A stretch of DNA of 64,000 nucleotides from assembly GCA_040752595.1 (NCBI GenBank), contig JBFMGX010000020.1, forward strand, positions 21,622 to 85,621, given 5' to 3'. The number at the start of each line of letters is the position of its first letter. The stretch's first letter is position 1. The DNA comes from Candidatus Zixiibacteriota bacterium. GTDB lineage: Bacteria > Zixibacteria > MSB-5A5 > WJJR01. This document shows positions 1-29,583 of this stretch, one piece after another. The notes under the pieces were generated by a model. That model did no database searches, had not been told where the DNA came from, and saw only the letters and a program-made list of their open reading frames with translations. The translations under genes were made by a program, and so were the position numbers.

Positions 1-337
1 GGCAAGTGGGTCTTGTGCCTCTCTGGCTGGTGTGGGTCGACGCCCTCCGGGTCGTATCGCTGCTCCTGCTGTTGATCGGTGTCAGCCGTATCCGGAAGGT
101 CCTGGCGTGATCTTCCTGTCGGCGACGATCTGCCGTGACGGCAACATCTTCGCGTCCCATGCCTTCCCGGCCATGGCCCCACGCCAGGCCACTCGAGTCT
201 TGGCACTTCGCCGGTAAAGTCACGCCGCGCGAAAGTCGATATCAATAATTGTCCTATGAGAAGACTCCCGCTGCAGTCGGAGGGCGACTTTCCGGCGCAT
301 CGGGGGCGGGCTTGGGGTCCATCGTCACCGGAACCGT

Positions 338-1240
338 ATGCTGAGCGTTGCACACCTCGACGAGCGCATTGAGAAGTGCCTGGCGATTCTGGCGGACAAT
401 CCGCATTCGCAGGTCTTTGCCGCGTTGGCCGAGGCCTACCGCAAGCGCGGCGACTTCGGCCGTGCCTTTTCGATCTGCCGGGGCGGGTTGAAACACCACC
501 CGAACTACGCTCCGGCGCACCTCGTGCTGGCCAAGTTGTACCTGCATCAGGGGATGGTGGTGGAGTCGTTGGCCTCTCTGCAACGTGCGGCAGAGATCGA
601 CGGCGCGACGCGAGCCACCGATTTCGTTGAGGCCGAGATCCGCCTGGCGATGGGGGACGTCGAAAGTGCGCGCACCATCATCGATCGTCTCCGCGCCACC
701 GACCGCCACGATCCCGTCGTCAAAGATCTCGGTGACCGTCTCAAGGGGCTTCAACAGGCCGCCGCCTCTGCATCGTCGCACATCGCGGAGTCGGCGCCGC
801 CGGTGACCACCAGGACAGAGTTGCTACCGGGAGATACCGTCGAGTCGGCGACACACTCGATCATCGACTGGCCCCAATGGAGCAGCGTCGTGCGGGAGCA
901 GCCGCACGTGACCTGTGCCTTTGTGTTTGTGCCGTCGGATCCGGCCGGCGGCGCGGCGACCGTGGAGGTCGAAGCGCCTCCATCGCCATCGCCGATCGCC
1001 ATGGTCTGTGCCCGTCTGTTTCAGGAGGCAGGGGCAGAGCTGAGCCGCGCCGGTGGGGGCAGTCTCGACGAATTGCGCGTCGAACACCCCGGCGGCGAGG
1101 TCTGGTGCCGTCGCTACGGCGACCGTGTCGTGGGCTTCGCCGGCGATGCGGGTCTGTCGTTTGGCGCCGTGCGCCGGATTGCACTCAACACGGCTGAACG
1201 CGTGAACGCATGCACTGTCGATTCGACATCAACCTGTTGA
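338..1240 (+). CDS. TPR-repeat protein with C-terminal Roadblock/LC7-like region; first gene of the mglA cluster
   Basis: 300-aa ORF. The N-terminal ~165 aa read as TPR-type helical repeats (FAALAEAYRKRGDFGRAFSICRGGLKHHPNYAPAHLVLAKLYLHQG). The C-terminal ~120 aa (VTCAFVFVPSD...LRVEHPGGEVWCRRYGDRVVGFAGD...GAVRR) resemble a Roadblock fold by eye only. The next co-directional ORF starts 14 nt later. Confidence 0.55.
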   Translation: MLSVAHLDERIEKCLAILADNPHSQVFAALAEAYRKRGDFGRAFSICRGGLKHHPNYAPAHLVLAKLYLHQGMVVESLASLQRAAEIDGATRATDFVEAEIRLAMGDVESARTIIDRLRATDRHDPVVKDLGDRLKGLQQAAASASSHIAESAPPVTTRTELLPGDTVESATHSIIDWPQWSSVVREQPHVTCAFVFVPSDPAGGAATVEVEAPPSPSPIAMVCARLFQEAGAELSRAGGGSLDELRVEHPGGEVWCRRYGDRVVGFAGDAGLSFGAVRRIALNTAERVNACTVDSTSTC

Positions 1241-1253
1241 CGAGGATGACGGA

Positions 1254-2207
1254 ATGCCCAGCGCCCCAAGACGTCGCGCCGCCGCCCCCGGCGTTCTGGT
1301 TCGTCAGACGGTTCTCTACACCGGCGCGGTGATCGCCGTGCCTCTGATGCTGTACCCCCGGCGGTTGGGGTTCCCCTCCCTCGAGTTGAACCCGACTTTG
1401 GGCGTGCTGGAGTGGGGCTTCTATCTGGGCGTGTTCGTTGTCGCCGGCCTGCAGGTCTCCTGGTCGACGCGCATCGTGGCGGCGGGGTTCACGGTTCTTT
1501 ACCGGTTGTTGACCGGTGTGTTCTTGGGCACGTTGATCGTCGCGGCTCATGGCCGTCCCTGGGGCGCGACGATGTTCGAGATGATGTGGTCGTACCCTCT
1601 GGCGGTCATACCACAGGTGCTGTTGGCGCCGATCGTCCTGCGACCGGTGTGGGAGCGACTGTTGGTTGATGGGATGGCCCGTGGCGCCCGCCGCCCGGTC
1701 ACTTCACAACGGCGCGTTGTCATCGGGGATCGCACCGGGCTCCGTCCGTCCGCCTCGGCGGCCCGGCTGGCATCGACCATGCCGCCGACCAGTGCGAAGC
1801 CGTACGAGCCGTCACTCGATGATGCCGTTTCCTATGTCGGTGAGTACGACGGCGTGCGGATGTCCTGGATTGTGGACGGTGAGGGGCTGCCGCTGGCCGT
1901 GTGGCAACGGCAGCAGTATACCGGCGATGCGGATTTCTGGGCTCCGGTGGCGGTGGAGATGACGGAGTTTCATCGTCGGCGGTTGTCGGCGGCTGGACCC
2001 TGCCGCCCCGAGCGGGTGGAGGTCCGCACCGATCAGGGGCGTGTGATCGTGGAGGCGGTCGGGGGGTATTGGCTCGGCGTCCTGACCGATCCGGACGCGG
2101 ATGAACTGATCAACCTTCGCCTGGGCCGCGCGCGGGAGATGGCGGCCAGGAGTTTGCAGGAGAACGGTCGCCGGTTGGTGGGCGCCGGGGAGGTTCGCCA
2201 TGTATGA
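1254..2207 (+). CDS. Polytopic membrane protein with C-terminal Roadblock/LC7-like domain
   Basis: 317-aa ORF with GAGGA 7 nt upstream of the ATG. Residues ~15-135 form 4-5 hydrophobic helices. The C-terminus (VSYVGEYDGVRMSWIVDGEGLPLAV...RVEVRTDQGRVIVEAVGGYWLGVLTD...LRLGRAREMA) is Roadblock-like. Its stop overlaps the next start (ATGTATGA at 2200-2207). Confidence 0.55.
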   Translation: MPSAPRRRAAAPGVLVRQTVLYTGAVIAVPLMLYPRRLGFPSLELNPTLGVLEWGFYLGVFVVAGLQVSWSTRIVAAGFTVLYRLLTGVFLGTLIVAAHGRPWGATMFEMMWSYPLAVIPQVLLAPIVLRPVWERLLVDGMARGARRPVTSQRRVVIGDRTGLRPSASAARLASTMPPTSAKPYEPSLDDAVSYVGEYDGVRMSWIVDGEGLPLAVWQRQQYTGDADFWAPVAVEMTEFHRRRLSAAGPCRPERVEVRTDQGRVIVEAVGGYWLGVLTDPDADELINLRLGRAREMAARSLQENGRRLVGAGEVRHV

Positions 2208-2538
2208 GACGTTGTCGCAATTGAACAAGACCACCGGTGTGACCGGCAGCATGATCGTCGGCAATGACGGGATCGTGATTGCCGCGGACCTGGACGAGAA
2301 ATCGGACGACGAGACGCTGGGAGCGCTGGCTTCATCGATTGCCGCCACCGTGCGACGTTCGATGTCGGAGTTGGGGGCGCAGGATTTCTCCCAGATCACG
2401 GTGGAGGCCGAGAACCAGAAGATCTTCCTGACCGACGCGGGGGTCGGCACTTTGGTGGTGACCACCGAGCCGCGCGTCAACATCGGTTTGGTGCGTCTGG
2501 AGATCCGCAACGCCGTGCAGACGATCCAGCGCGGTTGA
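2200..2538 (+). CDS. Stand-alone Roadblock/LC7 domain protein (MglB paralog, MglC-like)
   Basis: 112 aa. The full length fits the Roadblock pattern: GVTGSMIVGNDGIVIAADL...LASSIAATV...ITVEAENQKIFLTDAGVGTLVVTTEPRVNIGLVRLEI. GGGGAGG lies 6 nt upstream of the ATG. Confidence 0.8.
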   Translation: MYETLSQLNKTTGVTGSMIVGNDGIVIAADLDEKSDDETLGALASSIAATVRRSMSELGAQDFSQITVEAENQKIFLTDAGVGTLVVTTEPRVNIGLVRLEIRNAVQTIQRG

Positions 2539-2587
2539 CGGCGTCGCATCCACCACAGGGCGTTCACCCGGAGAGAATAGACACCTT

Positions 2588-3535
2588 ATGGTTGCGATCA
2601 ACTATGCGTTTCGCGAGATCAGCTGCAAGATCGTCTACTACGGTCCGGGGTTGTCCGGCAAGACGACGAACCTGCAGTACGTGCACGACCGGGTGCCGGC
2701 CAAGTCGCGCGGCGAGTTGATCAGTCTGGCCACCGAGGCCGACCGTACGTTGTACTTCGACTTTCTGCCGATTCACGTGGGGGACATCGGCGGCTTTGCC
2801 ACGAAGTTCCAGTTGTACACGGTTCCGGGGCAGGTCTTCTACAACGCCACACGGAAGCTCGTGCTGCGCGGCGTCGACGGCATTGTCTTCGTAGCGGATT
2901 CCCAGCGCGCGAAGATGGATGAGAACGTCGAGTCGCTGGCCAACATGTACGAGAATCTGCGCGAGAACGACATCGATCCCACGCAGATCCCGATCGTGAT
3001 GCAATACAACAAGCGCGACCTGCCCGACATCGCGACGGTCGAGGAACTGGAACGCATTCTGAATCCGGAAGGACGGCCGTACACCGAGGCGTGCGCGGTG
3101 GAGGGGATCGGCGTCTTCGACACGATGAAACGCATCACCAAGCTCGTGCTCGAGGACACGAGACGACGCACGTCGGGGGTGACGGGCACGGTCACGCCGC
3201 CGCCGGCGCGGGGTGTCGTGGGACCGGTGGTGTCGGCCGCGGTCGGCGACGGGGCGCGCGTGATCGACTTTGAACAGTCCTCCCCGGGCATTGCCGTGGC
3301 GGCTCCTTCCGCCTCCGTCGGGGAACCGGCGGCGACGGCATCCGGGCCGATACGGGTTGCGCCGACGGCGGGAGACTCGCAACGGGAGACGTCCACGGCG
3401 CCTCCGGCAAGGCAACCGTCTGTGGCCCCCCGTCCGGAGGGAGCGACCATCATCGCGGCCCAGCGAAGCACACGCATACGCCGTCGACAACGATCATTCT
3501 TCGACCGCCTGTTCGGGTGGTTGTTCGGCCGTTAG
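2588..3535 (+). CDS. mglA: MglA-family Ras-like small GTPase with ~120-aa C-terminal extension
   Basis: The first ~195 aa align by eye along the whole of Myxococcus MglA: INYAFREISCKIVYYGPGLSGKTTNLQY, EADRTLYFDFLP, the MglA-specific LYTVPGQVFY (Thr in place of the G3 Asp), VFVADSQ, QYNKRDLP and GVFDT. A P/A/R-rich tail follows, ending RRRQRSFFDRLFGWLFGR. Confidence 0.9.
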   Translation: MVAINYAFREISCKIVYYGPGLSGKTTNLQYVHDRVPAKSRGELISLATEADRTLYFDFLPIHVGDIGGFATKFQLYTVPGQVFYNATRKLVLRGVDGIVFVADSQRAKMDENVESLANMYENLRENDIDPTQIPIVMQYNKRDLPDIATVEELERILNPEGRPYTEACAVEGIGVFDTMKRITKLVLEDTRRRTSGVTGTVTPPPARGVVGPVVSAAVGDGARVIDFEQSSPGIAVAAPSASVGEPAATASGPIRVAPTAGDSQRETSTAPPARQPSVAPRPEGATIIAAQRSTRIRRRQRSFFDRLFGWLFGR

Positions 3536-3547
3536 GGGAGGTTACTC

Positions 3548-4024
3548 ATGTCCTCGGGAGCATTCGTGCTATACGATGAGCAGATCGACCGGATCAACGC
3601 CGCGATGCTGCGCCTGATCAAGAAGGCGGAGGCGAAGTGCGCCCTGCTGGTGGACAAAGACGGGCATCTGATCACGCGGCAGGGCTTCACCCAGTCGCTG
3701 GACACGACGGCGCTGTCGGCTCTGCTGGCCGGGAGCTTCGCATCGACGCGGGAGATCGCCCGACTGGTCGGTGAACCGGAGTTCTCCGTGCTGTTCCACC
3801 AGGGCAAGCGGGATCATATCCACATTTCGCTGGTGGGCGACCGCAGCATCCTGGCGATCGTGTTTGACGACCGGACAACGATCGGCATGGTGCGGCTATA
3901 CGCCAAGGAAGCGGCCGACCGGCTCAAGGAGTTGATTTCCGCCTCGGTCCAGAAGGAAGCCCAGCTCGATCCGGACTTCGAGCTTCACGCGGGCGCGAAG
4001 ATCGACAGCATGTTCAAGGAGTGA
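3548..4024 (+). CDS. mglB: MglB (Roadblock/LC7 GTPase-activating partner of MglA)
   Basis: 158 aa. Matches Myxococcus MglB end to end: VLYDEQIDRINAAMLRL, LLVDKDGHLITRQG, SLDTTALSALLAGSFA, LVGEPEF, ILAIVFDDRTTIGMVRL and the C-terminal IDSMFKE tail. The SD GGGGAGG overlaps the mglA stop. Confidence 0.88.
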   Translation: MSSGAFVLYDEQIDRINAAMLRLIKKAEAKCALLVDKDGHLITRQGFTQSLDTTALSALLAGSFASTREIARLVGEPEFSVLFHQGKRDHIHISLVGDRSILAIVFDDRTTIGMVRLYAKEAADRLKELISASVQKEAQLDPDFELHAGAKIDSMFKE

Positions 4025-4097: not shown

Positions 4098-5786
4098 GTG
4101 TCTCAGGAACTCGGCCACATGCTGGTTCAGGCGGGGCGGATCACGACGGCCCAGCTTGAAGAAGCACTGAAGACTCAGCGGGATTCCGGTGAGAAGTTCG
4201 TTGACATCCTCGTGCGGATGCGCGCGGTTGCCGACGAGGATGAACTCACCCATTTCATCGGCCGTCAACTCAACATCGGCGCGCTGCGCCTTTCCGACGT
4301 CGAGCTCGATCCCGACGTCATCAAGCTGATTCCCTTCGACATCGCCCGTCGCTTCAACGTCATCGCCGTGTCCCGGGTGGGCAAGACCCTGGTGGTGGCG
4401 ATCTCCGACCCGCACAACATCTACGTTCTCGATGCCATCAAGTTCATCACCGGGTGCACGATCCAGCCCGTAATCTCCCCCGAGCGCGCGATCGCCCGTT
4501 CGATCGACCAATACTATGGCGACGCGGGCGGCATCGGTGATCTGATCAAAGGGTTGGAGGATGGCGAACTGGAGGTCATCGAAGTCGAGGAACAGCTCGA
4601 CGACATGGATCTGCAGTCGCAGGTGCAGGACAAGCCGCTGGTCAAGCTGGTGGACAAGATCATCATGGAGGCGATCCACCGCCACGCTTCCGATATTCAC
4701 ATCGAGACCTACGAGAAGCGCATCCGCGTGCGTTATCGCGTCGACGGCACCCTGCGGGAGACGCAGCCGCTGCCGTTCAAATATCGCGCGGCCATCGTCT
4801 CGCGTGTGAAGATTATGGCCGATCTGGACATCTCCGAACGGCGGTTGCCGCAGGATGGGCGCATCAAGATCAAGATCGGCAAACGCGCGGTCGACCTGCG
4901 CGTCTCGGTCCTGCCGACGATCTTCGGGGAGAAGGTCGTCATGCGTATCCTGGACCCCGAGGCGCTGATGGCCGACCTGACCAAGCTCGGTTTCCCGGAA
5001 AATGCCCTGAACAACTTCCGCAAGGCGATCAGTCTTCCGTACGGCATGATTCTGGTCACCGGGCCGACCGGCTCGGGCAAGACGACGACGCTCTACTCGG
5101 CGCTGAAGACCCTCAACCGCCCGGAAGTCAACATCCTCACCGCCGAAGACCCGGTCGAGTTCAACTTCGAGGGCATCAATCAGGTCCTCGTGCGCAGCGA
5201 CATCGGGCTGACGTTCGCGGCCTCGCTGCGTTCCTTCCTGCGCCAGGACCCCGACATCGTGATGGTGGGAGAGATCCGCGACGGCGAGACGGCGGAGATC
5301 GCCATTCGCGCGGCGCTGACCGGGCATTTGGTCTTCTCCACGCTGCACACGAACGACGCCCCCTCGACGGTGCACCGTCTTGTGGACATGGGCGTACCCA
5401 GTTACCTCGTGGCCTCGGCGACCAAACTGATCATGGCGCAGCGAATGACCAAGAAGATCTGCACGGGATGCCGCGAGGAAGTCCCGGTGACCGACGAGCA
5501 CATCAATGCCCTGTCGCTGTCGCCGGCGGAAGCCAAAGGTCTGCGCGTCTTTGCCGGCAAGGGATGCGCCGAGTGCAATGGCACCGGATTGTCCGGGCGG
5601 ACGGGTATCTTCGAGGTCATGTTGATCACCCCGGCGCTGGAGACCATGATCCTGCAAAACGCTCCGGTCGAGACCATACGGCAGCAGGCGATTGCCGAGG
5701 GGATGCAGACGCTGCGTTCGGCGGCGATCGAGAAGATGAAGATCGGGCAGATCCCCTTTGAGCAGGTGCTGGCGGAGTCGGCCTGA
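4098..5786 (+). CDS. pilB: Type IV pilus assembly ATPase PilB (GspE family)
   Basis: 562 aa. GspII_E N-terminal domain, Walker A GPTGSGKTTT, DPDIVMVGEIRD, FSTLHTND, and the tetracysteine CTGC...CAECNGTG. Start is GTG 4098 or ATG 4119. Confidence 0.92.
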   Translation: MSQELGHMLVQAGRITTAQLEEALKTQRDSGEKFVDILVRMRAVADEDELTHFIGRQLNIGALRLSDVELDPDVIKLIPFDIARRFNVIAVSRVGKTLVVAISDPHNIYVLDAIKFITGCTIQPVISPERAIARSIDQYYGDAGGIGDLIKGLEDGELEVIEVEEQLDDMDLQSQVQDKPLVKLVDKIIMEAIHRHASDIHIETYEKRIRVRYRVDGTLRETQPLPFKYRAAIVSRVKIMADLDISERRLPQDGRIKIKIGKRAVDLRVSVLPTIFGEKVVMRILDPEALMADLTKLGFPENALNNFRKAISLPYGMILVTGPTGSGKTTTLYSALKTLNRPEVNILTAEDPVEFNFEGINQVLVRSDIGLTFAASLRSFLRQDPDIVMVGEIRDGETAEIAIRAALTGHLVFSTLHTNDAPSTVHRLVDMGVPSYLVASATKLIMAQRMTKKICTGCREEVPVTDEHINALSLSPAEAKGLRVFAGKGCAECNGTGLSGRTGIFEVMLITPALETMILQNAPVETIRQQAIAEGMQTLRSAAIEKMKIGQIPFEQVLAESA

Positions 5787-6035: not shown

Positions 6036-6163
6036 CGGTATCCGGGTAGGACTGATTCCCAGCACGTCAGAGTCAAGTGCGCCCCTTGGGCGGCCGATAT
6101 TGGTAAAGAAGCGCCAAAGGTGGATTGGTAGGTCGCGGAGGGGAAGGCCGCAGCCGATTATCT

Positions 6164-7276
6164 ATGATGACATTGCGTGAATTGCTGGAGTTGATGGCGG
6201 AGCGCCGCGCCTCCGATCTGCATCTGACTGTGGGATCGCCCCCCCAGTTGCGGATCGACGGGCGCTTGGTCCGGCTGGAGGGTGAAGTGCTGACGCCGGA
6301 TCAGACCAAGAAACTCGCCTACAGCGTGATGAACGAGAAACAGCGCAAACGCTTCGAGGAAATCTGGGAGCTTGATCTGTCGTTCGGGATCGAGAATCTG
6401 AGCCGGTTCCGCTGCAATGTCTTCGTGCAGCGCGGCAACGTCGCCATCGCCATCCGCCAGATCCCCTTTAAGATTTCCTCGTTCGATGAATTGGGGCTGC
6501 CCAAGGTCGTGGCCGATCTGGCGAACCTGCCCCGGGGTCTGGCCCTGGTGACCGGGCCGACCGGCTCGGGGAAGTCGACGACACTGGCGGCACTCATCGA
6601 CCGGATCAACCGCGAACGCTACTGCCACATTCTCACGGTGGAGGACCCGATCGAGTACCTCCACCGCCACCAATGCTCCGTGGTCAACCAACGCGAAGTG
6701 CACACTGACACGACGTCCTTCGGTTCGGCGCTGAAGTACGCATTGCGTGAGGATCCCGACGTCGTGCTGATCGGCGAGATGCGCGACCTGGAGACGGTGG
6801 AGTCGGCGCTCAATATCTCGGAGACCGGCCACCTGGCCTTCGCGACCCTGCACACCAACTCCTGCGCCGAATCGGTCAACCGCATCATCGATGTCTTCCC
6901 GGTCAACCAACAGGAGCAGGTGCGCGTCACGTTGTCGTTTGTGCTGCAGGCGATCGTTTCCCAGCAATTGATTCCCCGCATCGGCGGCGGCCGCGTGGTG
7001 GCGCTGGAGATTCTCATCTGCACGCCGGCCATCCGCGCCTGCATTCGTGACGATAAAATCCACCAGATCTACTCGCTGATCCAGGCCGGGCAGAAGTTCG
7101 GCATGCGCACGATGAATCAATCACTGGCCGAGCTGTACATGTCCCACAAGATCACTTACGGCGACGCGGTGGCGCGATCGTCCAGCCCGCAGGAGTTGGA
7201 CGACACCATCGCGCGTGCCCGTGACAGCGGCGTGCGTCTGGGAGCCGCCGTGGGAGGAGAACGTGCCGCAGTTTGA
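6164..7276 (+). CDS. pilT: Twitching-motility retraction ATPase PilT
   Basis: Walker A GPTGSGKSTT, DPDVVLIGEMRD, AFATLHTNS, and the PilT-type AIRACIRDDKIHQIY motif. Start trimmed to ATG 6164 (MMTLRELLELM). Confidence 0.92.
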   Translation: MMTLRELLELMAERRASDLHLTVGSPPQLRIDGRLVRLEGEVLTPDQTKKLAYSVMNEKQRKRFEEIWELDLSFGIENLSRFRCNVFVQRGNVAIAIRQIPFKISSFDELGLPKVVADLANLPRGLALVTGPTGSGKSTTLAALIDRINRERYCHILTVEDPIEYLHRHQCSVVNQREVHTDTTSFGSALKYALREDPDVVLIGEMRDLETVESALNISETGHLAFATLHTNSCAESVNRIIDVFPVNQQEQVRVTLSFVLQAIVSQQLIPRIGGGRVVALEILICTPAIRACIRDDKIHQIYSLIQAGQKFGMRTMNQSLAELYMSHKITYGDAVARSSSPQELDDTIARARDSGVRLGAAVGGERAAV

Positions 7277-8462
7277 GTACAAAGGCAAGACGCTGGCCGG
7301 AACCGCAGTGGCGGGGGAGATCAAGGCCAAGGACCGGGCCGAATTGGACCGTCTCTTGCGCCGCAAGAAGATCATCCCCACCGCGGTCAACCGCAAGCCG
7401 TCGCAGCTCAACATTCGCATCGGGACCGGGGTCAAGAAGGTCCACATCTCGCGGTTCACCCGGCAATTTGCGACGATGATCGGCGCCGGGCTGCCGATGG
7501 TGCAATGCCTGGACATTTTGTCCAAGCAAATGGAGTCGGCCGAGTTGCGCAACGTGGTCGGCCAGATCAAGGATGCCGTCGCGTCCGGCTCGACCCTGGC
7601 CGAGGCGCTGGGGAAGCACAAGAAGATCTTCGACGACCTGTACGTGAATATGGTGGAGGCCGGGGAAATCGGCGGGGCGCTGGACACGATTCTCGTGCGT
7701 CTGGCGAATTACCGCGAGAAGGCGGATGCCTTGATCCGCAAGGTGCGTGGCGCGCTGGTGTACCCGTCGGTGATCGTGGTCGTGGCCATCGGCGTAACCT
7801 TCGCCATGCTCACCTACATCGTGCCTGTCTTCGCCAAGATGTTCTCCAATCTGGGCGCGGCGCTGCCGGCGCCGACGCAGATCATTCTCAATATCTCCCA
7901 TTTCCTGCGGGCCAATCTGCTCAAGATGTTTGTGGCCTTCGTGGCCCTTGGATTCGGCTTCCGCATGGCGTTGCGCACCGAGCGCGGGCGGTTGGCGTTT
8001 GACCGGGCCATCCTGAAGGCACCACTGATCGGAACGCTGATCCGCAAGAGCGCCGTGTCGCGGTTCACGCGCACGCTGGGGACGCTGCTCTCCTCGGGTG
8101 TTTCGATCCTCGATGCTCTGGAGATCACCGCCAAGACCGCCGGCAACCGCGTGATCCACGATGCGATCCGCCGCTCGGTGCTGGCGATCGCCGAGGGCGA
8201 CACCATCACCGGGCCGTTGCGCGAGACCGGCGTCTTCCCGCCGATGGTGACGCAGATGATCTCGGTCGGCGAAAAGACCGGCGGCCTCGACGACATGCTG
8301 GGGAAGATCGCCGACTTCTATGACGAGGAGGTGGATGCCGCGGTCTCGGCTCTGACCTCGATCATCGAGCCGGTGATCATCGTGTTCATGGGCGTGGTGA
8401 TCGGCGGCATTCTGATCGCGATGTACCTGCCGATGTTCGACATCATCGGCAAAATCCAATAG
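7263..8462 (+). CDS. pilC: Type IV pilus platform protein PilC (GspF family)
   Basis: Two GspF-type repeats and three hydrophobic segments. The N-terminus PQFEYKGKTLAGTAVAGEIKA is typical of PilC. Start set to the in-frame GTG at 7263, overlapping the pilT stop by 14 nt; the ORF-track start 7215 is probably too long. Confidence 0.9.
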   Translation: MPQFEYKGKTLAGTAVAGEIKAKDRAELDRLLRRKKIIPTAVNRKPSQLNIRIGTGVKKVHISRFTRQFATMIGAGLPMVQCLDILSKQMESAELRNVVGQIKDAVASGSTLAEALGKHKKIFDDLYVNMVEAGEIGGALDTILVRLANYREKADALIRKVRGALVYPSVIVVVAIGVTFAMLTYIVPVFAKMFSNLGAALPAPTQIILNISHFLRANLLKMFVAFVALGFGFRMALRTERGRLAFDRAILKAPLIGTLIRKSAVSRFTRTLGTLLSSGVSILDALEITAKTAGNRVIHDAIRRSVLAIAEGDTITGPLRETGVFPPMVTQMISVGEKTGGLDDMLGKIADFYDEEVDAAVSALTSIIEPVIIVFMGVVIGGILIAMYLPMFDIIGKIQ

Positions 8463-8542
8463 GATGCTCAAGCAGGAATCTGACCTGACGCGCCGTTCGC
8501 CGTGAACACCGGCGGACGGCGCCCGTCGCTTGTGCCAAAGCC

Positions 8543-10288
8543 GTGCTGGTCTATTCGCGTCGCCATGGCTCCATCGAAATCCGTCCCGCCTGGGTGATCG
8601 GCATGCGGCTGGTCACGCTGGCGGTGACGGCGGCCGTGGCCCGCCCCCTGTGGACCGATGCGTCGCTCCATGCGTCGGTGCTGGTCTATGCCGGGATGAC
8701 GGCGGTGGCCGTGCTGGCGCTGCTGTCGTCGCGGCGCCGGCATCGGCCGATTCTTCTCCCCACGGCCCTGGCACTGCAGACCGTCTGCGAGATCCTCGTC
8801 ATCTCGCAGGTCGTCTATCTGACCGGGGGGCTGAGATCCCCCTCCCACTCACTGTACATGATGACGATCGTGTCGGCGGCGCTGTGCTTCCGACTGGCGG
8901 GGACACTGGTCGTGGCGGCGGTCGCATCGGCGTCGTTTGTGACGGCGATCTGGGTCGGGGCCGGACATCAGGCCGGCGTGCTCTGGTCGCGCGACTGGTT
9001 CGCCGCCATGCGTCAACTGTCCGACCAGGACTTCTATACGGTCTTCCTACGGCTGTGCATCTTCTTTCTCTGCGCGTTCGCGGGGGGATACCTCGCCGAA
9101 CGGCTTCACACCAAGGACAAAGCGCTGGCGCACACCTCCGAGGCGCTGCAACTGGCCAAATGGGAGACCGGGGACATTCTCAAGCATCTGCGCTCGGGGG
9201 TGCTGACGCTCGACATCGCCGGGCACATCGCCTATTTCAACCGCGCCGCCGAGGAGATTCTGGGGCTCACTGAGCGGCGTGTCCGCGGGCGGCCGATCCG
9301 CGAAATTCTCGGGGCGCATTACCCCGAACTCGCAGATCGGCTGGAGTGGGTGCTGGCCTCGCAACAGATGGACATCCGCACCGAGCTTCTGCTGCGACGA
9401 CCCGATGGCCGGGTCATCCCGGTCGGGCTCTCTACATCAGTCCTCAGTGGGACCGGCGGTCGACCGCGCGGCGTGATCGCGGTCTTTGCCGATCTGACCG
9501 AGGCGAAGCAACTGGAGGAACGGGCACGGCGGCAGGATCGGCTGGCCGCCGTGGGTGAGCTTTCCGCCGCCATCGCCCATGAGATTCGCAACCCCCTGGC
9601 GGCGATCTCCGGCTCGGTGGAGGTGCTGCGGAGCGAGTTGGATGTCGCCGATGAAAACCGCAAGTTGCTCGAGTTGATCATCGCCGAGTCGGCGCGTCTC
9701 AACAAAATTCTCAGCGACTTTCTGCTCTATGCCCGTCTCAGTCCGGTCGTCACGGGCCGGGTCTGTGTGGCGACGGCGTTGGACGAGGTGCTGGAGATCG
9801 CGCGTCGGCATTTCCGTCGCAATGACGGATCGCCTCCGGTCGATCTGCGCACCGACGTCGCCGACCGCGCGCTGACCGTCGCGGCCGACCCCGACCACCT
9901 CAAGCAGATGCTGATCAACCTTGTCTTCAACGCCGTCGAGGCGTGCGCGGACAGACCGTGTACCGTGACTGTCCGCGTGCGCAGCTTGGGTCCGACACCA
10001 GAGTGGTCGAGCTTCCGTGAACCCGTGGCGGGCAATGGCGACGATTGGGTGACGATTGCGGTCGTCGACAACGGCGGCGGGATTCCCGATTCGGTCATGG
10101 AACGGCTCTATGAGCCGTTTGTCTCCTCGAAGCCGAGCGGGACAGGGCTGGGGCTGGCGATTGTGAAACGCCTGGTCGACAGCGCCGGCGGCCGCATCCA
10201 TGCCGAAAGCACCCCCGGCCTCGGCACGACCTTCACGGTTCACCTCAAACGCTGCCCGATGGTCGCGCCGACGCGGGCCGCGGTCTAA
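8543..10288 (+). CDS. PilS-like membrane sensor histidine kinase (multi-TM, PAS, HisKA, HATPase)
   Basis: The N-terminal ~190 aa are hydrophobic (about 6 helices). PAS-like GHIAYFNRAAEEILGL, H-box AAIAHEIRNPLAAISG, N-box LINLVFNAVEA, and G-boxes DNGGGIP and GTGLGLAIV. Confidence 0.8.
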   Translation: MLVYSRRHGSIEIRPAWVIGMRLVTLAVTAAVARPLWTDASLHASVLVYAGMTAVAVLALLSSRRRHRPILLPTALALQTVCEILVISQVVYLTGGLRSPSHSLYMMTIVSAALCFRLAGTLVVAAVASASFVTAIWVGAGHQAGVLWSRDWFAAMRQLSDQDFYTVFLRLCIFFLCAFAGGYLAERLHTKDKALAHTSEALQLAKWETGDILKHLRSGVLTLDIAGHIAYFNRAAEEILGLTERRVRGRPIREILGAHYPELADRLEWVLASQQMDIRTELLLRRPDGRVIPVGLSTSVLSGTGGRPRGVIAVFADLTEAKQLEERARRQDRLAAVGELSAAIAHEIRNPLAAISGSVEVLRSELDVADENRKLLELIIAESARLNKILSDFLLYARLSPVVTGRVCVATALDEVLEIARRHFRRNDGSPPVDLRTDVADRALTVAADPDHLKQMLINLVFNAVEACADRPCTVTVRVRSLGPTPEWSSFREPVAGNGDDWVTIAVVDNGGGIPDSVMERLYEPFVSSKPSGTGLGLAIVKRLVDSAGGRIHAESTPGLGTTFTVHLKRCPMVAPTRAAV

Positions 10289-10617: not shown

Positions 10618-10846
10618 AGAATGGTGGGTACAAGCGAGACCGTGCGTATGTTGCAGACTACGCGATGAGGTCTTTGGAGGTGCGGGTCAGCCCTTCAGGG
10701 TGAATCCTTCAGGATGAACCCTTGGGCTGACCTTCGGACCCAACGGGTCCGAGAGAGCACAGCCGCCGGCGCAAGACATCGCCCGCTTGCGCGGGCGAAC
10801 GTCAGCCCAAGGGCTGACGGGCACATGAAGTTCCGAATCGACGATG

Positions 10847-11326
10847 CTATTGCTTCGGCAGATTGCTGACGATGTCCTGGCTTTGGGAAACGAGGTTCTG
10901 GAATCTCGCAACAAATCCGTTCCGTCGATCCCTCACCTGTTGCGGTTGTTGCGGTTGTGCGCTCTGCGCCCATTGCTCGTTGCCCCTCGCTTCACGACAT
11001 GCGGAACGGACGTTTTGGAAGAAATCAACCAACTGCGCACGATACGATTCCTGCTTCAGGAGAAACAACCATCCGCGATTCGACTCGAAGCGAAACGTCG
11101 CACTATCAATGTCGTCGAGGGAGCCGAACGGAATGTACTGAAGATTCGGCACGTCCTTGGTGATTTGTGCAATCGTCCTCGCAATGGTATCGCTCTCTCT
11201 CTTGATCAGCTCCCTGAACAGCCGTTTGGATCGCCAATCTCCGATCTTGAGGCGCAGGAATTCCATAGCAAGACTCACAAACAGGGCCAAGACCGCCCCG
11301 AGAACCACATGCCACGTTTGTTCCAT
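10847..11326 (-). CDS. Hypothetical single-pass membrane protein (orphan, visibly lower GC)
   Basis: 159-aa ORF, 28 nt downstream of the sigma-54 activator stop on the same strand. Has an N-terminal hydrophobic helix VVLGAVLALFVSLAMEFL and non-GC-biased composition (K/Q/F/S rich). No family recognised. Confidence 0.4.
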   Translation of the reverse strand: MEQTWHVVLGAVLALFVSLAMEFLRLKIGDWRSKRLFRELIKRESDTIARTIAQITKDVPNLQYIPFGSLDDIDSATFRFESNRGWLFLLKQESYRAQLVDFFQNVRSACREARGNEQWAQSAQPQQPQQVRDRRNGFVARFQNLVSQSQDIVSNLPKQ

Positions 11327-11353
11327 CCGTATCCTCCTTCCCTGTATCTACTG

Positions 11354-12823
11354 CTACAACCCATACTCCCTGATCTTCCGGTACAGCGTTCGCGTGCCGA
11401 TGCCGAGGAGACGGGCGGCCCGGGAACGGTTGCCGTGGGATTCCTTCAGGGCCAAAGCGATGCGGTCGCGCTCGACCTGCTTCATCGAGGCGAAGTCGGC
11501 GTCCTCTGAGTCGCCGGAGGACAGCAATCTCAAGCGGTCGACACGGCGCTTGAGATACTCAAGATCGCGCTTGAGTTCGGAGAGGGCGGCAAAGATCATC
11601 TCGCGTTCGACATTCTCGGCGCGACGGCCGGTCACGACGGGGAGATTGAGGGGTGTGCGGACGGTTTCCAAGAGCGTCCCGACGTGATCGGCATTCAGAA
11701 CGTCGTTCGGATGCCCCTCGCGGGTTCCGCTCGGGATAAACCGCACCTGCGCGCGTTCGATGAAGTTGCGCAGCTCGCGGACGTTCCCCGGCCAATCGTA
11801 GTCGAGCAGGCGGACCAGCGCGGATTCATCGAGGCGGTCGATCAGTCGCGACGGCGGTCTGCCGGCGGCCAGATGATGCGCCAGCAGCGCGGGGACATCG
11901 CTGGGGCGCTCGCGCAGGGGACGCAGCGTCAACTGCACCACGGCCAGGCGATAGTACAGATCCTGCCGGAAGGCACCTTCGATAACGGTGCGTCCCAGGT
12001 CGCGGTTGGTCGCCGCGACGATGCGGAAATCGACTGGGATCGCCTTCGTGGCGCCGATCGGCCGGACCTGACGTTCCTCCAGCACACGCAAGAGGCGCGC
12101 CTGCAACGACGGTTTGGTTTCGCCGATTTCATCGAGGAAGATCGTCCCGCCCTCGACCGCCTCGAAGATCCCCTTCTTGCGGCCGAAGGCATCGGTGAAG
12201 GCGCCCTTCTCATGGCCGAAGAGTTCGCTTTCCAGCAACGTCTCGGGAAAGGCGGTGCAGTTGAGCGCCAGAAATGCCTTCCCGGCGCGGGGGCTGTTGT
12301 TGTGGAGGGCGCGTGCCGCCAACTCCTTGCCGGTTCCCGATTCGCCCTCGATCAACACAGTCGTGTCGGAGCGCGATGCGGCCAAAAGCAAATCGGAGGC
12401 GGCGCGCAACGATTGCGACAATCCAACCCAGCCACACCGGGCAACGTGCTCGCGGTCGGCGAGGATCGCGCCGATGCGCGACCGCAGACGCGCCGGTTCA
12501 CAGGAGCGCATTACGGCCGCGGCAAGACCCCAGCGATCATGCACGGCGTCCTCCGGCGATCCCAGCTCTTCACCGGCCACGAGAATGTCCGCGATAGGAG
12601 CCCGCAGACGCAACTTCACGGCAAGCTGGTCGGTTGACAGGCCGCCACCCGTGGGGTCAATCAGGAGGACATCGGGTGCGCCGTCGGCGAGCCGACGCAA
12701 TGCCGTCAGAAAACCATCGACCGCGGTGTGCGTGCCGCCGAGCGGTTGGAGCGCTTCACGCCACGATCGCGACAGTTCGCCATCCGCGGTGATGGTCAGG
12801 AATTGGGGATGAATCTCCGGCAT
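11354..12823 (-). CDS. Sigma-54-dependent transcriptional activator (divergent receiver-like N-terminus, AAA+, Fis HTH)
   Basis: [30 protein letters not shown], the [11 protein letters not shown] motif, and a C-terminal [24 protein letters not shown]. Start trimmed to ATG 12823 (MPEIHPQF). The ORF-track extension to 13054 runs through repeat F5. Confidence 0.85.
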
Positions 12824-12950
12824 TCGCAATGCCCCTGCTTGACGCCTGCGACGTTGTGATGATAGGCGTTGGAGGGGGTGATTGGCAAATCGGGAGTTGG
12901 GCTTGTTCCACGACTCCCGTGGCCGACGGATGCCGTGGAACGGAGACAAT

Positions 12951-13041
12951 TCCCTCACCCGCCTGCCTGCGGCGGGCGACCTCTCCCGTAGGGAGAGGTT
13001 ACCATTCCCCCTCGCCCTCCGGGAGAGGGTTGGGGTGAGGG
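12951..13041. repeat. Family F5 imperfect palindrome (TCCCTCACCC...GACCTCTCCC...GGGAGAGGTTA...GGGGTGAGGG)
   Basis: Read directly. Homologous copies at 27737-27852 and 61749-61868. Lies between the rnr stop and the activator start. Confidence 0.85.
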
Positions 13042-13069
13042 AAGCCATGGCCAACTGGTGGACGTGTAA

Positions 13070-15256
13070 TCAGCTTCGGTGGTGCGGGCGTCGGTGCATG
13101 GAGTGTCTGGCGGTGGTTGCCGCCGGGGAATCGGCGAGGACCAGATCGATCTCCCGCCGTTCGGCGTCGGTGCGAACCAGACGCACCCGAACCTGATCGC
13201 CGAGCCGGAACGTGCGGCCGCGACGGCGCCCCTTCACGCGCCAGCGCTCTTTTTCCCAGGTGTAGTAGTCGTCATCGATCCCGGAGAAGCGCACCAGCCC
13301 ATCGGCGCCGATCCCCGACAGGGTCACGAAGAAGCCGAATTCGAGGAAGCCGGAGATGATGCCGACGAACTCGTCACCGAGATGCGACGAGAGGTACTCC
13401 AGTTGCTTGATGCGCACCGATTCGCGTTCGGCCTCCTCGGCGAGACGTTCGCGTTCGGAGGTCTGCCGTCCGATCGCCGGTAGCGCGGCGCGCGCCGTGT
13501 GCTGAGCCGCCGTCCTCCAACTTCCGGTGGTGATCCGCTTCAGGTGGCGATGGACCCAGAGATCGGGGTAGCGACGGATCGGCGAGGTGAAGTGGGCATA
13601 GTGCGGGAAGGCAAGCCCGAAGTGGCCGATGTTCTCGGGTTGATAGACGGCCTTCATCAAAGAACGCAGCAGGATCTGGTGGATCATTTCCTTGCGCGGA
13701 TCGTCCTGAACCGAGTCGAGGAAGCGCGACAGCTTGCGCGAGGTCACCGTCTCTTCGGCGGAGAATCGAAAACCGAGCGTCTCCACGAATCCCGCGAATT
13801 CCGCCATCTTCTCCGGCGCGGGCGGGGCATGGACGCGGTACAGGCAGGGGAGGTTTCGCCGGAGGAAACGGTGCGCGGCGCACTGATTGGCCACGAGCAT
13901 GAACTCCTCGATCAACTGCGTGGCGTCATTGGCGTGACGCAACTCGATGCGCTCGGGGCGACCATCCTGGTCGAGGATCACCTTGGGCTCGGGGACCTCG
14001 AGATCGAGACTGCCATTGGCAAAGCGACGCTGCCGCAGGAGCTGCGACAGCCCGCGCATGTCGTCCAGCGTCAGGGCGAGCGGCGCGATCGTCCGGCTTT
14101 TCTTTCCCGCCGCGAAATAGTCCATCACGGCATCGTAGCTGAGCTTGGCGCGGGAGTGGATCACGCTCTCGCAGAACTCATAACGCACGATCTCACCGGC
14201 ATCGGTCAGATCGATCAAACAACTGACGGTGAGGCGGTCGCGCCGCGGCCGGAGACTGCACAGGTCATTGGACAGCCGTTCCGGGAGCATGGGAATCACG
14301 CGGTCCACGAGATAGACGGAGGTGCCGCGGTCGTAGGCCTCGCGGTCGAGCGCACCTGCTTCCGGAACATAGTGGCCGACATCGGCGATGTGCACGCCGA
14401 GACGCCAGTGACGGCCATGACGCTCCAGCGAGACCGCATCGTCATGATCTTTGGCGTCGGCCGGGTCGATCGTGAACGTGGTCAGGTCGCGGAGATCCTC
14501 GCGCCCGCGCAACACGGAAGGGGAGAGGTCGCCCTCACAGGCGCGGGCCTCCGCCAGGGCCTCGGCGGGGAAGCGGCGCGGCAGTTGATATGCTCCGATA
14601 ATACGTTCGATATCCACACCGGGCTCATCGGGGAAGCCGAGCACGTCGGTGATCTTCCCGGAGGGCGTGGCGTCAGGCGACGCCCATTCTGTGATCTGCA
14701 CGACCACTTGTTGGCCGACCGTCGCGCCCTTGGCCGCGCTCGGGGGGACATGGATTTCGCGCAACGGGTGGGGGGCATCGGGAACGACATAGGAGAAATG
14801 CCGCGCCTGATGATAGATGCCGACGATCGGTTTGTTGCCGCGCGCCAGTATCTTGATGATCGCCCCTTCCGGACTGGGGCCATCGCGCTCGGCGTGGAGA
14901 CGAACCAGCACACGGTCGCCATCGAGCGCGGTCATTCGATCGTGAGGACGGATGAAGACCTCCTGCGGCAGCGGCGCGGCCGGGTCGATGGGCTCCGCAT
15001 CGAGGCGGCAGAACATGTGGGCGCCGCGGCGTACTGCGGCGGTGCCGACCACGAGGTTCAACGGCTTTGGTGGTGCCAAACGTCCACGCTTGAGGCGTAC
15101 GAGTCGGCCCTGGGCGACCAACGACTTGACGGCGGTACGAAACGCGGAGTAGTCCCGCTCGGTGATTCCCATCGCGCGCGCCAACTCGCGCGCGCGGACA
15201 GGGCGACCGATCTGATCGGCGAGGAAACGGATGATGCGGTCGGCATCAGCGTGCAT
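13070..15256 (-). CDS. rnr: Ribonuclease R (RNB family 3'-5' exoribonuclease with C-terminal S1 domain)
   Basis: The RNB motifs HIADVGHYV and DRVIPMLPERLSNDLCSL, plus an S1-like C-terminus (FVGIISGFLEFGFFVTL). Start trimmed to ATG 15256 (MHADADRIIRF). Confidence 0.9.
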   Translation of the reverse strand: MHADADRIIRFLADQIGRPVRARELARAMGITERDYSAFRTAVKSLVAQGRLVRLKRGRLAPPKPLNLVVGTAAVRRGAHMFCRLDAEPIDPAAPLPQEVFIRPHDRMTALDGDRVLVRLHAERDGPSPEGAIIKILARGNKPIVGIYHQARHFSYVVPDAPHPLREIHVPPSAAKGATVGQQVVVQITEWASPDATPSGKITDVLGFPDEPGVDIERIIGAYQLPRRFPAEALAEARACEGDLSPSVLRGREDLRDLTTFTIDPADAKDHDDAVSLERHGRHWRLGVHIADVGHYVPEAGALDREAYDRGTSVYLVDRVIPMLPERLSNDLCSLRPRRDRLTVSCLIDLTDAGEIVRYEFCESVIHSRAKLSYDAVMDYFAAGKKSRTIAPLALTLDDMRGLSQLLRQRRFANGSLDLEVPEPKVILDQDGRPERIELRHANDATQLIEEFMLVANQCAAHRFLRRNLPCLYRVHAPPAPEKMAEFAGFVETLGFRFSAEETVTSRKLSRFLDSVQDDPRKEMIHQILLRSLMKAVYQPENIGHFGLAFPHYAHFTSPIRRYPDLWVHRHLKRITTGSWRTAAQHTARAALPAIGRQTSERERLAEEAERESVRIKQLEYLSSHLGDEFVGIISGFLEFGFFVTLSGIGADGLVRFSGIDDDYYTWEKERWRVKGRRRGRTFRLGDQVRVRLVRTDAERREIDLVLADSPAATTARHSMHRRPHHRS

Positions 15257-15365
15257 GGACAGCGGAGTCTCCGGGTGGCACGGACAAACCCTCAGGGACC
15301 AACGCCCCTGAGGGCTTGTGCGTGGCACACCGATGGGTCGAACGAGGTCTTTGTGCCATGGTCTT

Positions 15366-15390
15366 GGTCAGGAGCACAGGGCTCCTGACC
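15366..15390. repeat. Hairpin GGTCAGGAGC-n4-GCTCCTGACC (family F6)
   Basis: Perfect 10-bp stem just downstream of the mreB stop. Related hairpins at 32484-32506 and 62299-62319. Confidence 0.7.
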
Positions 15391-25475: not shown

Positions 25476-25792
25476 CGATGATTCCATTCGGGACGGCACC
25501 GGGGCCGACCCATCGTGCCATTGTACCGTCTGAAACACGGAGAAGAAACAGGTTTTCTCGCTTCCGCTTCGGCGATGGCCAGGCTGTGCGAACGGCAGTC
25601 AGACCTGTCGAGTGGATGGCCTCCGGCGGCAGTGACGAAGCGAGCGTGGCGGCCGACAATGGAGTTGAAGGGGTATAATGCTGTGCCGGCGGCGTGCGGC
25701 CCCGCCTTGACATGCCCGCCGGAAGGGGTATACTTGCCTGACTGTCCGGAGAACGACACGCCCCGGACAAGATGTGGGAGGTTGCGGTGTCG

Positions 25793-26845
25793 ATGCACAT
25801 CGGGATTCTGACTTCTGGTGGTGACTGCCCCGGTCTTAACGCCGTTGTGCGTGCCGTCGTGGTCAAAGCGATCAAGCACAACAAGTGGCAAGTGACCGGC
25901 ATTCTCGAAGGTTGGCGCGGTCTGATGCGCGAGGGCAAGACCCGTCCTCTGGCCCTCCATGAGATGTCCGGCATTTTGGGACTCGGGGGGACGCTGCTAA
26001 AGACCTCGCGGACCAATCCCGCGACCCGCTCCGGAGGGGTCGAAGAGGTTCTCCAGAAGGTCTCGGATCTCAAGCTGGATGCCGTGATCGCCATCGGCGG
26101 CGAGGACACGCAGGGTGTCGCCCATGCCTTCTCCGAGCGCGGTCTGCCCATTGTCGGGATACCCAAGACCATCGACAACGATCTGGCCGGGACGGACTAC
26201 TCGTTTGGATTCGACACGGCCATCAACACGGTGATGCACGCCATCGACAGCGTGCGCACGACGACCGAATCGCATCAACGGGTGATGGTCGTCGAGGTCA
26301 TGGGTCGCCACGCCGGCTGGATTGCGCTTCAGGGGGGAATCGCCGGAGGCGCCGATGCCATTCTCATCCCCGAGCGCCCGACCGATCTGGATGAGGTCTG
26401 CGCGTTGGTGCGGCGTCGGCACGAGGGCGGCAAAAACTTCTCCATCGTCGTCGTGGCCGAAGGGGCCAAGGTCACCGTCGACAAGACCGACGATTCGGTC
26501 GGGAGTCTCATTTTGCAGGATTTGGCCAAGGACGAGTTCGGACATGTGCGGCTCGGAGGAATCGGACAGGTCCTGGCGCGGGAAATCGAGAAGCGGACCG
26601 GATACGAGACGCGCGAGGTGATGCTGGGTCACGTGCAACGGGGCGGAACCCCCACGGCCTTTGATCGCTATTTGTGTACGCGGTACGGTCTGCACGCCGT
26701 GCATCTGATCGAGACGGGTCAGTTTGGGTGTATGGTGTGCCTCCGTGGCAATCAAATCACCTCGGTCCCGCTGTCTGAGGTCGCCGGAAGAACCAAGACC
26801 GTTCCGCATGAGCTGTTTGAGGAGGCAGCCGTCTTCTTCGGCTGA
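25793..26845 (+). CDS. pfkA: 6-phosphofructokinase (ATP- or PPi-dependent; specificity cannot be told by eye)
   Basis: GILTSGGDCPGLNAVVRAVV, IGGEDTQGVA, GIPKTIDNDL, MGRHAGWIAL and LGHVQRGG. Confidence 0.9.
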   Translation: MHIGILTSGGDCPGLNAVVRAVVVKAIKHNKWQVTGILEGWRGLMREGKTRPLALHEMSGILGLGGTLLKTSRTNPATRSGGVEEVLQKVSDLKLDAVIAIGGEDTQGVAHAFSERGLPIVGIPKTIDNDLAGTDYSFGFDTAINTVMHAIDSVRTTTESHQRVMVVEVMGRHAGWIALQGGIAGGADAILIPERPTDLDEVCALVRRRHEGGKNFSIVVVAEGAKVTVDKTDDSVGSLILQDLAKDEFGHVRLGGIGQVLAREIEKRTGYETREVMLGHVQRGGTPTAFDRYLCTRYGLHAVHLIETGQFGCMVCLRGNQITSVPLSEVAGRTKTVPHELFEEAAVFFG

Positions 26846-29572: not shown

Positions 29573-29583
29573 ACACAACTGTC

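Follow-up and report, generated by a model that had tools for sequence, protein, structure and literature searches.

Control of cell polarity by a Ras-like GTPase in bacteria has its reference model in MglA and MglB, and this pair is known almost wholly from Myxococcus; there MglA counts as a single domain of ~195 residues placed by RomR/RomX, MglC and RomY. The myxobacterial gene order is mglBA, and Myxococcus MglC is an adaptor without GTPase-activating protein (GAP) activity. MglC is itself a Roadblock protein, and it docks MglB (PMC7949163). A 2014 survey treats prokaryotic small GTPases as single-domain proteins; beyond this it names no more than receiver–Roadblock fusions and a few group-1 systems with two MglB proteins (PMC4316618). 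In M. xanthus the link from MglA to PilB is made by the tetratricopeptide repeat (TPR) protein SgmX, an effector with 14 TPRs through which MglA directs PilB to the pole; the same study also considered PATAN proteins as candidates and dropped two of them because they were less conserved (PMC11580455). In Synechocystis the pilus motor is bound by response regulators of the PATAN type, and the cyanobacterial PATAN regulators bind PilB/PilC and set pilus polarity (bioRxiv 10.1101/2021.06.11.447907). Here we describe a block of five genes near the start of a 64,000-nucleotide (nt) stretch of a Candidatus Zixiibacteriota genome (contig JBFMGX010000020.1, positions 21,622 to 85,621; hereafter the window), in which MglA and MglB are encoded with three further Roadblock-bearing proteins directly upstream of type IV pilus motor genes.

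The block is a conserved MglA/MglB module of Zixibacteria that is linked to the pilus motor genes and holds four Roadblock domains (Table 1). Its MglA and MglB belong to known Myxococcus-type families; what is new is the number and architecture of the Roadblock partners, the tail of MglA, the gene order and the position upstream of the pilus motor. A first-pass annotation had described five co-directional open reading frames (ORFs) that are tightly spaced or overlapping, and all five were recovered at its coordinates, with gaps of 13, -8, 49 and 12 nt in order from ORF1 to ORF5. The overlap that it had placed between ORF2 and ORF3 can be read directly as ATGTATGA, and these 8 nt of overlap are retained in 16 of 20 loci, which suggests that translation of ORF3 may be coupled to that of ORF2. 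Its count of up to four Roadblock modules, one anchored in the membrane and one fused to TPRs, was likewise correct: they are MglB, ORF3 and the C-terminal domains of ORF2 and ORF1. Promoter and terminator scans returned nothing above shuffled expectation within the five-gene cluster, and the terminator scan showed no terminator-like site between the five genes or between mglB and pilB, so the operon structure is drawn only from spacing and synteny.

We compared the block with 19 related loci, 12 from a scan of one genome per species and seven distinct ones from exact-protein look-ups. By tblastn, ORF1, ORF2, ORF3, mglA and mglB keep the same order and strand in 19 of 19, as far as each contig reaches, and the co-conservation that the first-pass annotation had set as a check on its proposal is therefore borne out. 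Synteny holds even in lineages in which ORF2 is only 25-36% identical. The named records are mostly metagenome-assembled genomes of Candidatus Zixiibacteriota, with a few labelled Acidobacteriota, 'uncultured Ignavibacteria' or 'bacterium'; the phylum Zixibacteria is a member of the Fibrobacteres–Chlorobi–Bacteroidetes (FCB) group. The conserved unit is larger than the five genes, since a PATAN gene and a gene for a small membrane protein stand upstream and pilBTC-pilS downstream. Wherever the contig extends, the full order is comEC-PATAN-small transmembrane (TM) protein-ORF1-ORF2-ORF3-mglA-mglB-pilB-pilT-pilC-pilS. Throughout the loci pilB adjoins mglB on the same strand, at a distance of 0-107 nt (73 nt in the window).

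ORF4 had been called a clear MglA, and this proved sound. It aligns without gaps to M. xanthus MglA (PDB 5ymx/6h17) over residues 3-193 (E 4e-75) and carries the P-loop GPGLSGKTT (19-27), DR53T54 (the Arg finger and the switch-I Thr), TVPGQ (78-82) and NKRD. Group-1 MglA proteins are defined by GxxxxGKT, an Arg finger by the switch-I Thr, TVPGQ, NKxD and a coupled mglB (Wuichet & Sogaard-Andersen 2014). All of these sequence features are found in ORF4, mglB starts 12 nt downstream, and by its motifs the catalytic set appears intact for group 1. The protein departs from the group in its length, which is 315 amino acids (aa) and not the ~195-200 residues of a single domain. ORF5 had been read as MglB from end to end, including its tail, and it matches M. 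xanthus MglB (PDB 6h5b; E 3e-34, ~47% identical), T. thermophilus MglB (E 2e-17) and Pfam Robl_LC7 (2.4e-12). The NCBIfam MglB model, a Thermus-type equivalog, covers residues 4-156 with 92 bits, under its cut-off of 200. From these matches MglB is predicted to be a classical GAP-type Roadblock protein.

The third clear Roadblock protein is ORF3, and its description as a stand-alone paralog of 112 aa holds (Pfam Robl_LC7, E 2.3e-17). Its orthologues are 55-86% identical. Against the PDB, the family profile matches Asgard Roadblocks (1e-11 to 7e-6), M. xanthus MglB (2e-4) and CvnB5 (2e-4). No MglC chain appears among the PDB matches at E <= 10, whether the single sequence or the family profile is used, and identity with MglC was rejected on that ground. 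By its sequence ORF3 is a generic short Roadblock protein and not demonstrably an MglC orthologue; it may have an MglC-like adaptor role.

ORF2 and ORF1 had each been thought, by eye, to end in ~120 residues resembling a Roadblock domain. We examined both with AlphaFold2 (AF2) models built from their family alignments. The 4-5 TM helices proposed for ORF2 correspond to four hydrophobic spans (13-33, 48-76, 73-100 and 110-134), and AF2 predicts six helices over residues 12-143, followed by a basic disordered linker (144-184). Residues 188-314 adopt the Roadblock a-b-b-a-b-b-b-a topology in the model, with a predicted local distance difference test (pLDDT) score of ~90. The top Foldseek match in the PDB is p14 (1veu_B, E 1e-6, TM-score 0.78); 1veu_B, 3kye, 1j3w, 6hjm and 9jue together span E 1e-6 to 4e-5 and target TM-scores of 0.75-0.89. 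Every one of the best 50 of 110 matches at E <= 1e-3 is a Roadblock protein, and the matches include p14/LAMTOR2, MP1 complexes, Streptomyces and Asgard Roadblocks, and T. thermophilus and M. xanthus MglB. Robl_LC7 is matched at E <= 0.01 by 19 of 25 aligned family members, and in one orthologue (locus L016) it scores 25.7 bits, above the Pfam gathering threshold (GA). Relatives of ORF2 number 48 in a set of 5.8 billion proteins, and an exhaustive search of representatives found 167 clusters at 50% identity, almost all of them of full-length proteins (300-350 aa). Because Arg is abundant both at the N-terminus and just past the last hydrophobic span, and there are four spans, the Roadblock domain is predicted to be cytoplasmic (N-in/C-in), carried on an inner-membrane anchor.

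The N-terminal TPR repeats noted in ORF1 are supported by Pfam TPR_19 (E 2.5e-13), and its AF2 model (pLDDT 86) has ~3.5 TPRs. A disordered linker (153-172) separates them from a second a-b-b-a-b-b-b-a fold over residues 178-295, modelled at pLDDT 82-96. The best Roadblock match of this domain by Foldseek against the PDB is LAMTOR2 (5y3a_G, E 5e-5, TM-score 0.76), and 5y3a_G, 5x6u_B, 7yh1_A and 3kye_C range from E 5e-5 to 2e-4 with target TM-scores of 0.63-0.77. In the Foldseek list, Roadblock matches are interleaved with TPR proteins that align to the N-terminal half, and the structural neighbours of the TPR array include the TPR domains of CHIP/STUB1 and RPAP3. We found 85 relatives of ORF1; among 31 aligned family members, five match Robl_LC7 (best 3.8e-8). 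In lineages with an ORF2 only 25-31% identical, the C-terminal halves of both ORF1 and ORF2 give marginal matches to the Roadblock clan (Robl_LC7 9.6e-6 to 0.13, LAMTOR5 0.005, MAPKK1_Int 0.013). From the models, the fold matches and the family profiles we conclude that both fusions are real, ORF1 joining TPRs to a Roadblock domain and ORF2 a polytopic membrane anchor to another, and the proposal thus passes the other check named in the first-pass annotation, a Roadblock profile match or fold in these two C-terminal regions. We also considered known TPR proteins as identities for ORF1: SgmX was rejected (NF052243 equivalog score 14.4 bits vs a cut-off of 1800; ~3.5 TPRs vs 14), as were GltE and PilW, whose NCBIfam scores fell far under their cut-offs.

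A feature that the first-pass annotation overlooked is the C-terminal tail of MglA, ~120 residues long (194-315). Most of it is a linker that keeps its reading frame and approximate length in all orthologues despite an identity of 18%, and it ends in the motif …RIRRRQRSFFDRLFGWLFGR, in which an aromatic amphipathic helix, predicted from sequence, comes after a polybasic stretch. The motif is conserved in 14 of 14 close orthologues. Among the 120 best MglA homologues in a large database (P0134-P0253), every protein is long (297-475 aa) and all but one (119/120) end in an Arg/Lys run and then a stretch rich in Phe/Trp/Leu, with variants such as …KKKRSFWRKLFSWI, …RKKKKRFFLFRWFGGDND and …KRKSFFARLFGRLFGR. 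The terminal residues vary by lineage (GR, WI, WK and GGDND, as in …FGR, …NWI, …SWK and …GGDND), and the gene cluster is unchanged in five loci whose tails are of divergent types. For the MglAs with divergent tails, a look-up of cluster members returned a taxon name for one cluster, Zixibacteria. The last 32 residues carry a net charge of +6 to +9, and the mean over the last 30 residues of the homologue tails is +7.5 to +8.2. On a helical wheel the last 14 residues set an F/F/L/F/W/L/F face against an R/S/D/R/G/G face. The core S-[LF]-F-x-R-L-F-G resembles the membrane-targeting sequence (MTS) of E. coli MinD, KGFLKRLFGG (PMC5471200). Just before the polybasic run, at residues ~284-292 (window 3437-3460), 97 of the 120 tails also carry an element of the form [A/M][Q/P]x?S[L/T][K/R], in which the conserved Ser beside basic residues could be a recognition or phosphorylation site.

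Because charge and hydrophobicity are kept while the exact and terminal residues vary, we read the tail as a leash with a putative membrane-binding amphipathic helix. Alternatively, it could be a short linear motif that binds protein, for example the TPR groove of ORF1 or a Roadblock surface, in which case MglA would be tethered to the TPR–Roadblock protein and not to lipid. The structural neighbours CHIP/STUB1 and RPAP3 clamp C-terminal peptides, the TPR array is the best-conserved part of ORF1 (61%), and the [AM][QP]x?S[LT][KR] element has the look of a recognition motif rather than of a sequence that binds lipid. However, the extreme C-terminal residues differ between lineages, unlike those of carboxylate-clamp ligands, whereas a conserved charge (+7 to +8) and aromatic/hydrophobic content are typical of membrane-targeting sequences, and the motif resembles the MinD MTS. 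We regard tethering to protein as unlikely and infer from the conservation pattern that a physicochemical role in membrane binding fits the tail better than that of a specific peptide ligand.

With moderate confidence, we propose that the type IV pilus motor is controlled by an MglA/MglB switch at the membrane, with Roadblock proteins as docking partners. The C-terminal motif, on a leash of ~90 residues, would keep MglA at the cytoplasmic membrane, in the manner of the MinD helix or the polybasic anchors of Ras/Rho, and MglB would switch MglA off. ORF2, probably paired with ORF3, would provide a membrane-fixed Roadblock platform that docks MglA or MglB, as MglC/RomR or Ragulator do; the heterodimer is proposed since dimers are the working form of Roadblock domains. 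ORF1 would attach to the platform by its own Roadblock domain, and its TPR surface could reach PilB/PilT/PilC or the PATAN protein. The output would be spatial or temporal control of pilus extension vs retraction. In this form, the proteins could make up a self-contained polarity switch, as the first-pass annotation had suggested. A more specific version is tentative, and we would sooner doubt it than rely on it: a Ragulator-like logic in Zixibacteria, in which MglA is tethered without lipidation, a 4-TM Roadblock protein and a free one form the dock, and a TPR–Roadblock adaptor leads to the pilus motor, the whole replacing the RomR/RomX/MglC landmarks.

The additional Roadblock proteins might instead be catalytic regulators of MglA, serving as alternative GAPs or resembling guanine nucleotide exchange factors (GEFs), with ORF2 acting at the membrane and ORF1 at the pilus base as several spatially separate switches. 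The MglB fold is common to all four modules. MglB itself is reported to act both as a GAP and in a GEF-like way (PMC11016934), and two MglB homologues are coupled to some group-1 MglA systems (PMC4316618). Yet ORF1, ORF2 and ORF3 are far from MglB: the ORF3 profile reaches it at 2e-4 at best, and hhalign gives under 2% for the C-terminal domains of ORF1 and ORF2. The Roadblock protein of Myxococcus that is not MglB, MglC, is moreover the adaptor without GAP activity mentioned above. We hold a catalytic role for the extra Roadblocks to be decidedly unlikely and favour docking partners for the membrane-associated switch.

Several observations weigh against the proposed switch or the domain assignments beneath it. 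In the window protein, residues 195-277 of ORF2 match Pfam Robl_LC7 with only 19 bits (E 1.2e-3), under the GA of 23, and a single-sequence search with ORF1 gave no Pfam Roadblock match at E <= 1. Pairwise hhalign among the four Roadblock families, on shallow alignments of 15 sequences, returned probabilities of 0.2-76%, too low to order their kinship, and we relied on Pfam matches across family members and on fold comparison instead. The amphipathic moment of the last 13 MglA residues is moderate (0.38). Finally, rpsT, murJ and comEC are also syntenic upstream in many loci, so that inertia of gene order across the phylum, and not function, could account for some of the conservation. This last point bears on the possibility that the module has no part in pilus motility, the adjacency to pilBTC being gene order only, or the pili serving DNA uptake (comEC) while the GTPase governs competence or another envelope process. 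Synteny here does exceed functional linkage. Against this, mglB and pilB lie 0-107 nt apart on one strand in every locus with no terminator-like site between them, control of type IV pili by MglA is established in Myxococcus and Bdellovibrio (PMC4316618, PMC11580455), and PATAN proteins regulate the pilus motor in cyanobacteria. We consider a module without a role in pilus motility highly improbable, and retain control of the pilus motor as the preferred reading.

Table 1. Features of the MglA/Roadblock module and its neighbours in the window, with mean identity of each part to the window.
Feature	Position (nt)	Strand	Evidence	Mean identity to window
Small membrane protein gene, 3' end at window edge (frame 3, …VVSLLLLLIGVSRIRKVLA, then stop)	3-110	+	Position and by-eye resemblance	
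ORF1, TPR–Roadblock fusion, 300 aa	338-1240	+	ORF list	
ORF1 TPR array, residues 1-150	338-787	+	Pfam TPR_19 E 2.5e-13	61% (most conserved part of ORF1)
ORF1 Roadblock domain, residues 176-295	863-1222	+	AF2 and Foldseek	31%
ORF2, ~4-TM–Roadblock fusion, 317 aa	1254-2207	+	ORF list	
ORF2 TM domain, ~4 TM, residues 1-143	1254-1682	+	Hydropathy, AF2	40%
ORF2 Roadblock domain, residues 185-317	1806-2204	+	AF2, Foldseek, Pfam in family	62%
ORF3 start codon over ORF2 stop codon, 8-nt overlap (ATGTATGA)	2200-2207	+	Direct reading	
ORF3, short stand-alone Roadblock/LC7 protein, 112 aa	2200-2538	+	ORF list, Pfam Robl_LC7	75%
ORF4 (mglA), group-1 MglA, 315 aa	2588-3535	+	ORF list, alignment to M. xanthus MglA	
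MglA G domain, residues 1-193, group-1, intrinsic Arg finger	2588-3166	+	PDB 5ymx/6h17	86%
MglA hypervariable linker, residues 194-283, rich in Ala/Pro/Val/Ser/Gly	3167-3436	+	18% identity among orthologues	18%
MglA conserved C-terminal motif, residues 284-315, GATIIAAQRSTRIRRRQRSFFDRLFGWLFGR, putative membrane-targeting sequence	3437-3535	+	Conservation, charge, helical wheel	65% (32-residue end)
ORF5 (mglB), MglB, 158 aa, Roadblock GAP-type with C-terminal tail	3548-4024	+	ORF list, PDB and NCBIfam	Core 83%, tail 58%
PilB-type extension ATPase (MshEN + T2SSE)	4098-5786	+	Pfam T2SSE E 2e-136, MshEN 9e-21	
PilT-type retraction ATPase	6125-7276	+	Pfam T2SSE E 2e-43, conserved position	
PilC platform protein	7215-8462	+	Pfam T2SSF E 2e-66	
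PilS-like sensor kinase (6TM_PilS, PAS, HisKA, HATPase_c)	8543-10288	+	Pfam, conserved position	

Upstream of the five genes, the window appears to open within the small gene found in related loci between PATAN and ORF1. A tblastn search with the window fragment itself (3-110) gave no match, and the assignment is drawn from its position and from its likeness, by eye, to the C-terminus encoded by that gene; with the protein of a related locus (L001, 5520-5873), the gene was found to be conserved in related loci. Its orthologues are 111-129 aa long and have no Pfam family; by eye, they seem to start with a signal peptide and to contain hydrophobic segments that probably span the membrane, and the protein could act together with the membrane domain of ORF2. 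The PATAN gene lies just outside the window, and comEC is always ahead of it where the locus extends. It encodes a PATAN/DUF4388 protein (PF14332, E 2e-32) of 388-401 aa at 4321-5502 in L001, with equivalents in L003-L020. No match to a receiver domain (Response_reg) was reported for this protein, whose C-terminal half of ~230 residues is uncharacterised.

Downstream, the listed start of pilC is that of the longest ORF, and the true start probably lies further downstream. We recognised no pilR-like gene among the next ORFs tested, at 10844-11509 and 11684-12637, neither of which has a Pfam match. In one related locus (L020), pilB (7814-9498) and the PilS-like kinase gene (12029-13796) are each split into two called genes, probably through frameshifts or assembly errors and not as a matter of biology.

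The genes past the PilS-like kinase bear nothing on the MglA/Roadblock finding. They include housekeeping genes for LptF/LptG, phosphofructokinase, GAPDH, PGK, enolase, a class II aminoacyl-tRNA synthetase and a protein related to AIR synthase, and the glycolysis genes for phosphofructokinase, GAPDH and PGK are clustered at 25772-30815 (+). The enolase ORF (37948-39558, -) is listed at 536 aa, ~100 residues more than the Pfam domains need, so its true start is probably internal. A protein of 1906 aa (54564-60284, +) with six HYR domains, CarboxypepD_reg and a C-terminal FlgD_ig-like domain is, judged by these domains, likely to be a large secreted or surface adhesin, and a PEGA-domain protein follows it at 62384-63751. 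Three long ORFs of 1110, 728 and 629 aa (49271-52603, +; 39525-41711, -; 13499-15388, +) have no Pfam family at E <= 1e-5, and some of them may be spurious or on the wrong strand, the sequence having 62% GC.

In the searchable literature, outside which most subscription journals lie, we found no description of this cluster, of the TM– or TPR–Roadblock fusions, of an MglA tail of this kind or of MglA membrane anchors, and no paper in which 'MglA' and 'Zixibacteria' occur together. The placement of MglA appears to be solved across a whole phylum in another way than in Myxococcus, with a tail suited to the membrane and with Roadblocks wired to the membrane and to a TPR adaptor, beside the presumed pilus target. 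If this is true, the module would be a compact system, complete in its own genes, in which pilus polarity driven by a GTPase could be reconstituted, an earlier example from bacteria of a small GTPase anchored in the membrane through a hypervariable region, and a prokaryotic membrane-anchored Roadblock platform relevant to the origin of Ragulator-like assemblies. The work also gives domain assignments to the ORF1 and ORF2 families, so far labelled only 'hypothetical' or 'TPR'. These families are not rare in metagenomes, ORF2 alone forming more than 100 clusters at 50% identity.

Among known systems, the Myxococcus xanthus module shares with the window a group-1 MglA with Arg finger and TVPGQ, an MglB ~47% identical, an additional Roadblock protein beyond MglB, and a TPR protein, which there connects the switch with PilB; the SgmX study also lists PATAN proteins among its candidates. 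The window cluster differs in having four Roadblock modules vs two, two of them fused, to a polytopic anchor and to a short TPR array. Its ORF3 has no detectable similarity to MglC, its ORF1 is not SgmX, and its MglA has a tail of 120 residues. The gene order is mglA-mglB vs mglBA, an inversion already remarked on in the first-pass annotation, the genes stand directly upstream of pilB-pilT-pilC, and RomR/RomX/RomY are not encoded in the cluster. Ragulator (LAMTOR1-5) and the Rag GTPases share the design, which is predicted here, of a small GTPase served by several Roadblock proteins on a platform fixed to the membrane. In the structural searches the Roadblock domains of both ORF1 and ORF2 matched LAMTOR2 and MP1 best, a likeness at the level of the fold only. 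Ragulator, in contrast, is anchored by the lipidated LAMTOR1 and not by TM helices, and the Rag GTPases are heterodimeric and carry Roadblock domains of their own.

In Bdellovibrio, the TPR partner of MglA is Bd2492, alongside RomR. To our knowledge, this TPR protein has no Roadblock domain and the Bdellovibrio system has no MglB. The combination of MglA and a TPR partner in a function related to type IV pili is shared between Bdellovibrio bacteriovorus (PMC4316618) and, as predicted, the window. The cyanobacterial PATAN-REC regulators (PixG, PixE, TaxP1) share PATAN (PF14332) with the gene that stands by the module in every related locus; the Zixibacteria protein differs in its lack of a reported Response_reg match. 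The actinobacterial conservons CvnA-D are likewise operons with a membrane protein, an MglB-type Roadblock and an MglA-family GTPase, and CvnB5 matches the ORF3 profile (2e-4), whereas they have a group-2 MglA without Arg finger, a histidine kinase as membrane component, a DUF742 protein and no link to pili (PMC4316618).

The MglA tail has its closest counterparts in the C-terminal MTS of MinD and in the hypervariable regions of Ras and Rho proteins with their polybasic anchors. Its extreme C-terminus is predicted to be a basic, amphipathic helix rich in Phe/Leu/Trp (…SFFDRLFGWLFGR in MglA vs KGFLKRLFGG in MinD). A non-conserved, flexible linker ahead of the C-terminal anchor is shared with K-Ras and Rac. 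Unlike Ras/Rho, the MglA tail carries no lipidation signal (no CaaX), and compared with MinD its linker is much longer and its membrane binding putative.

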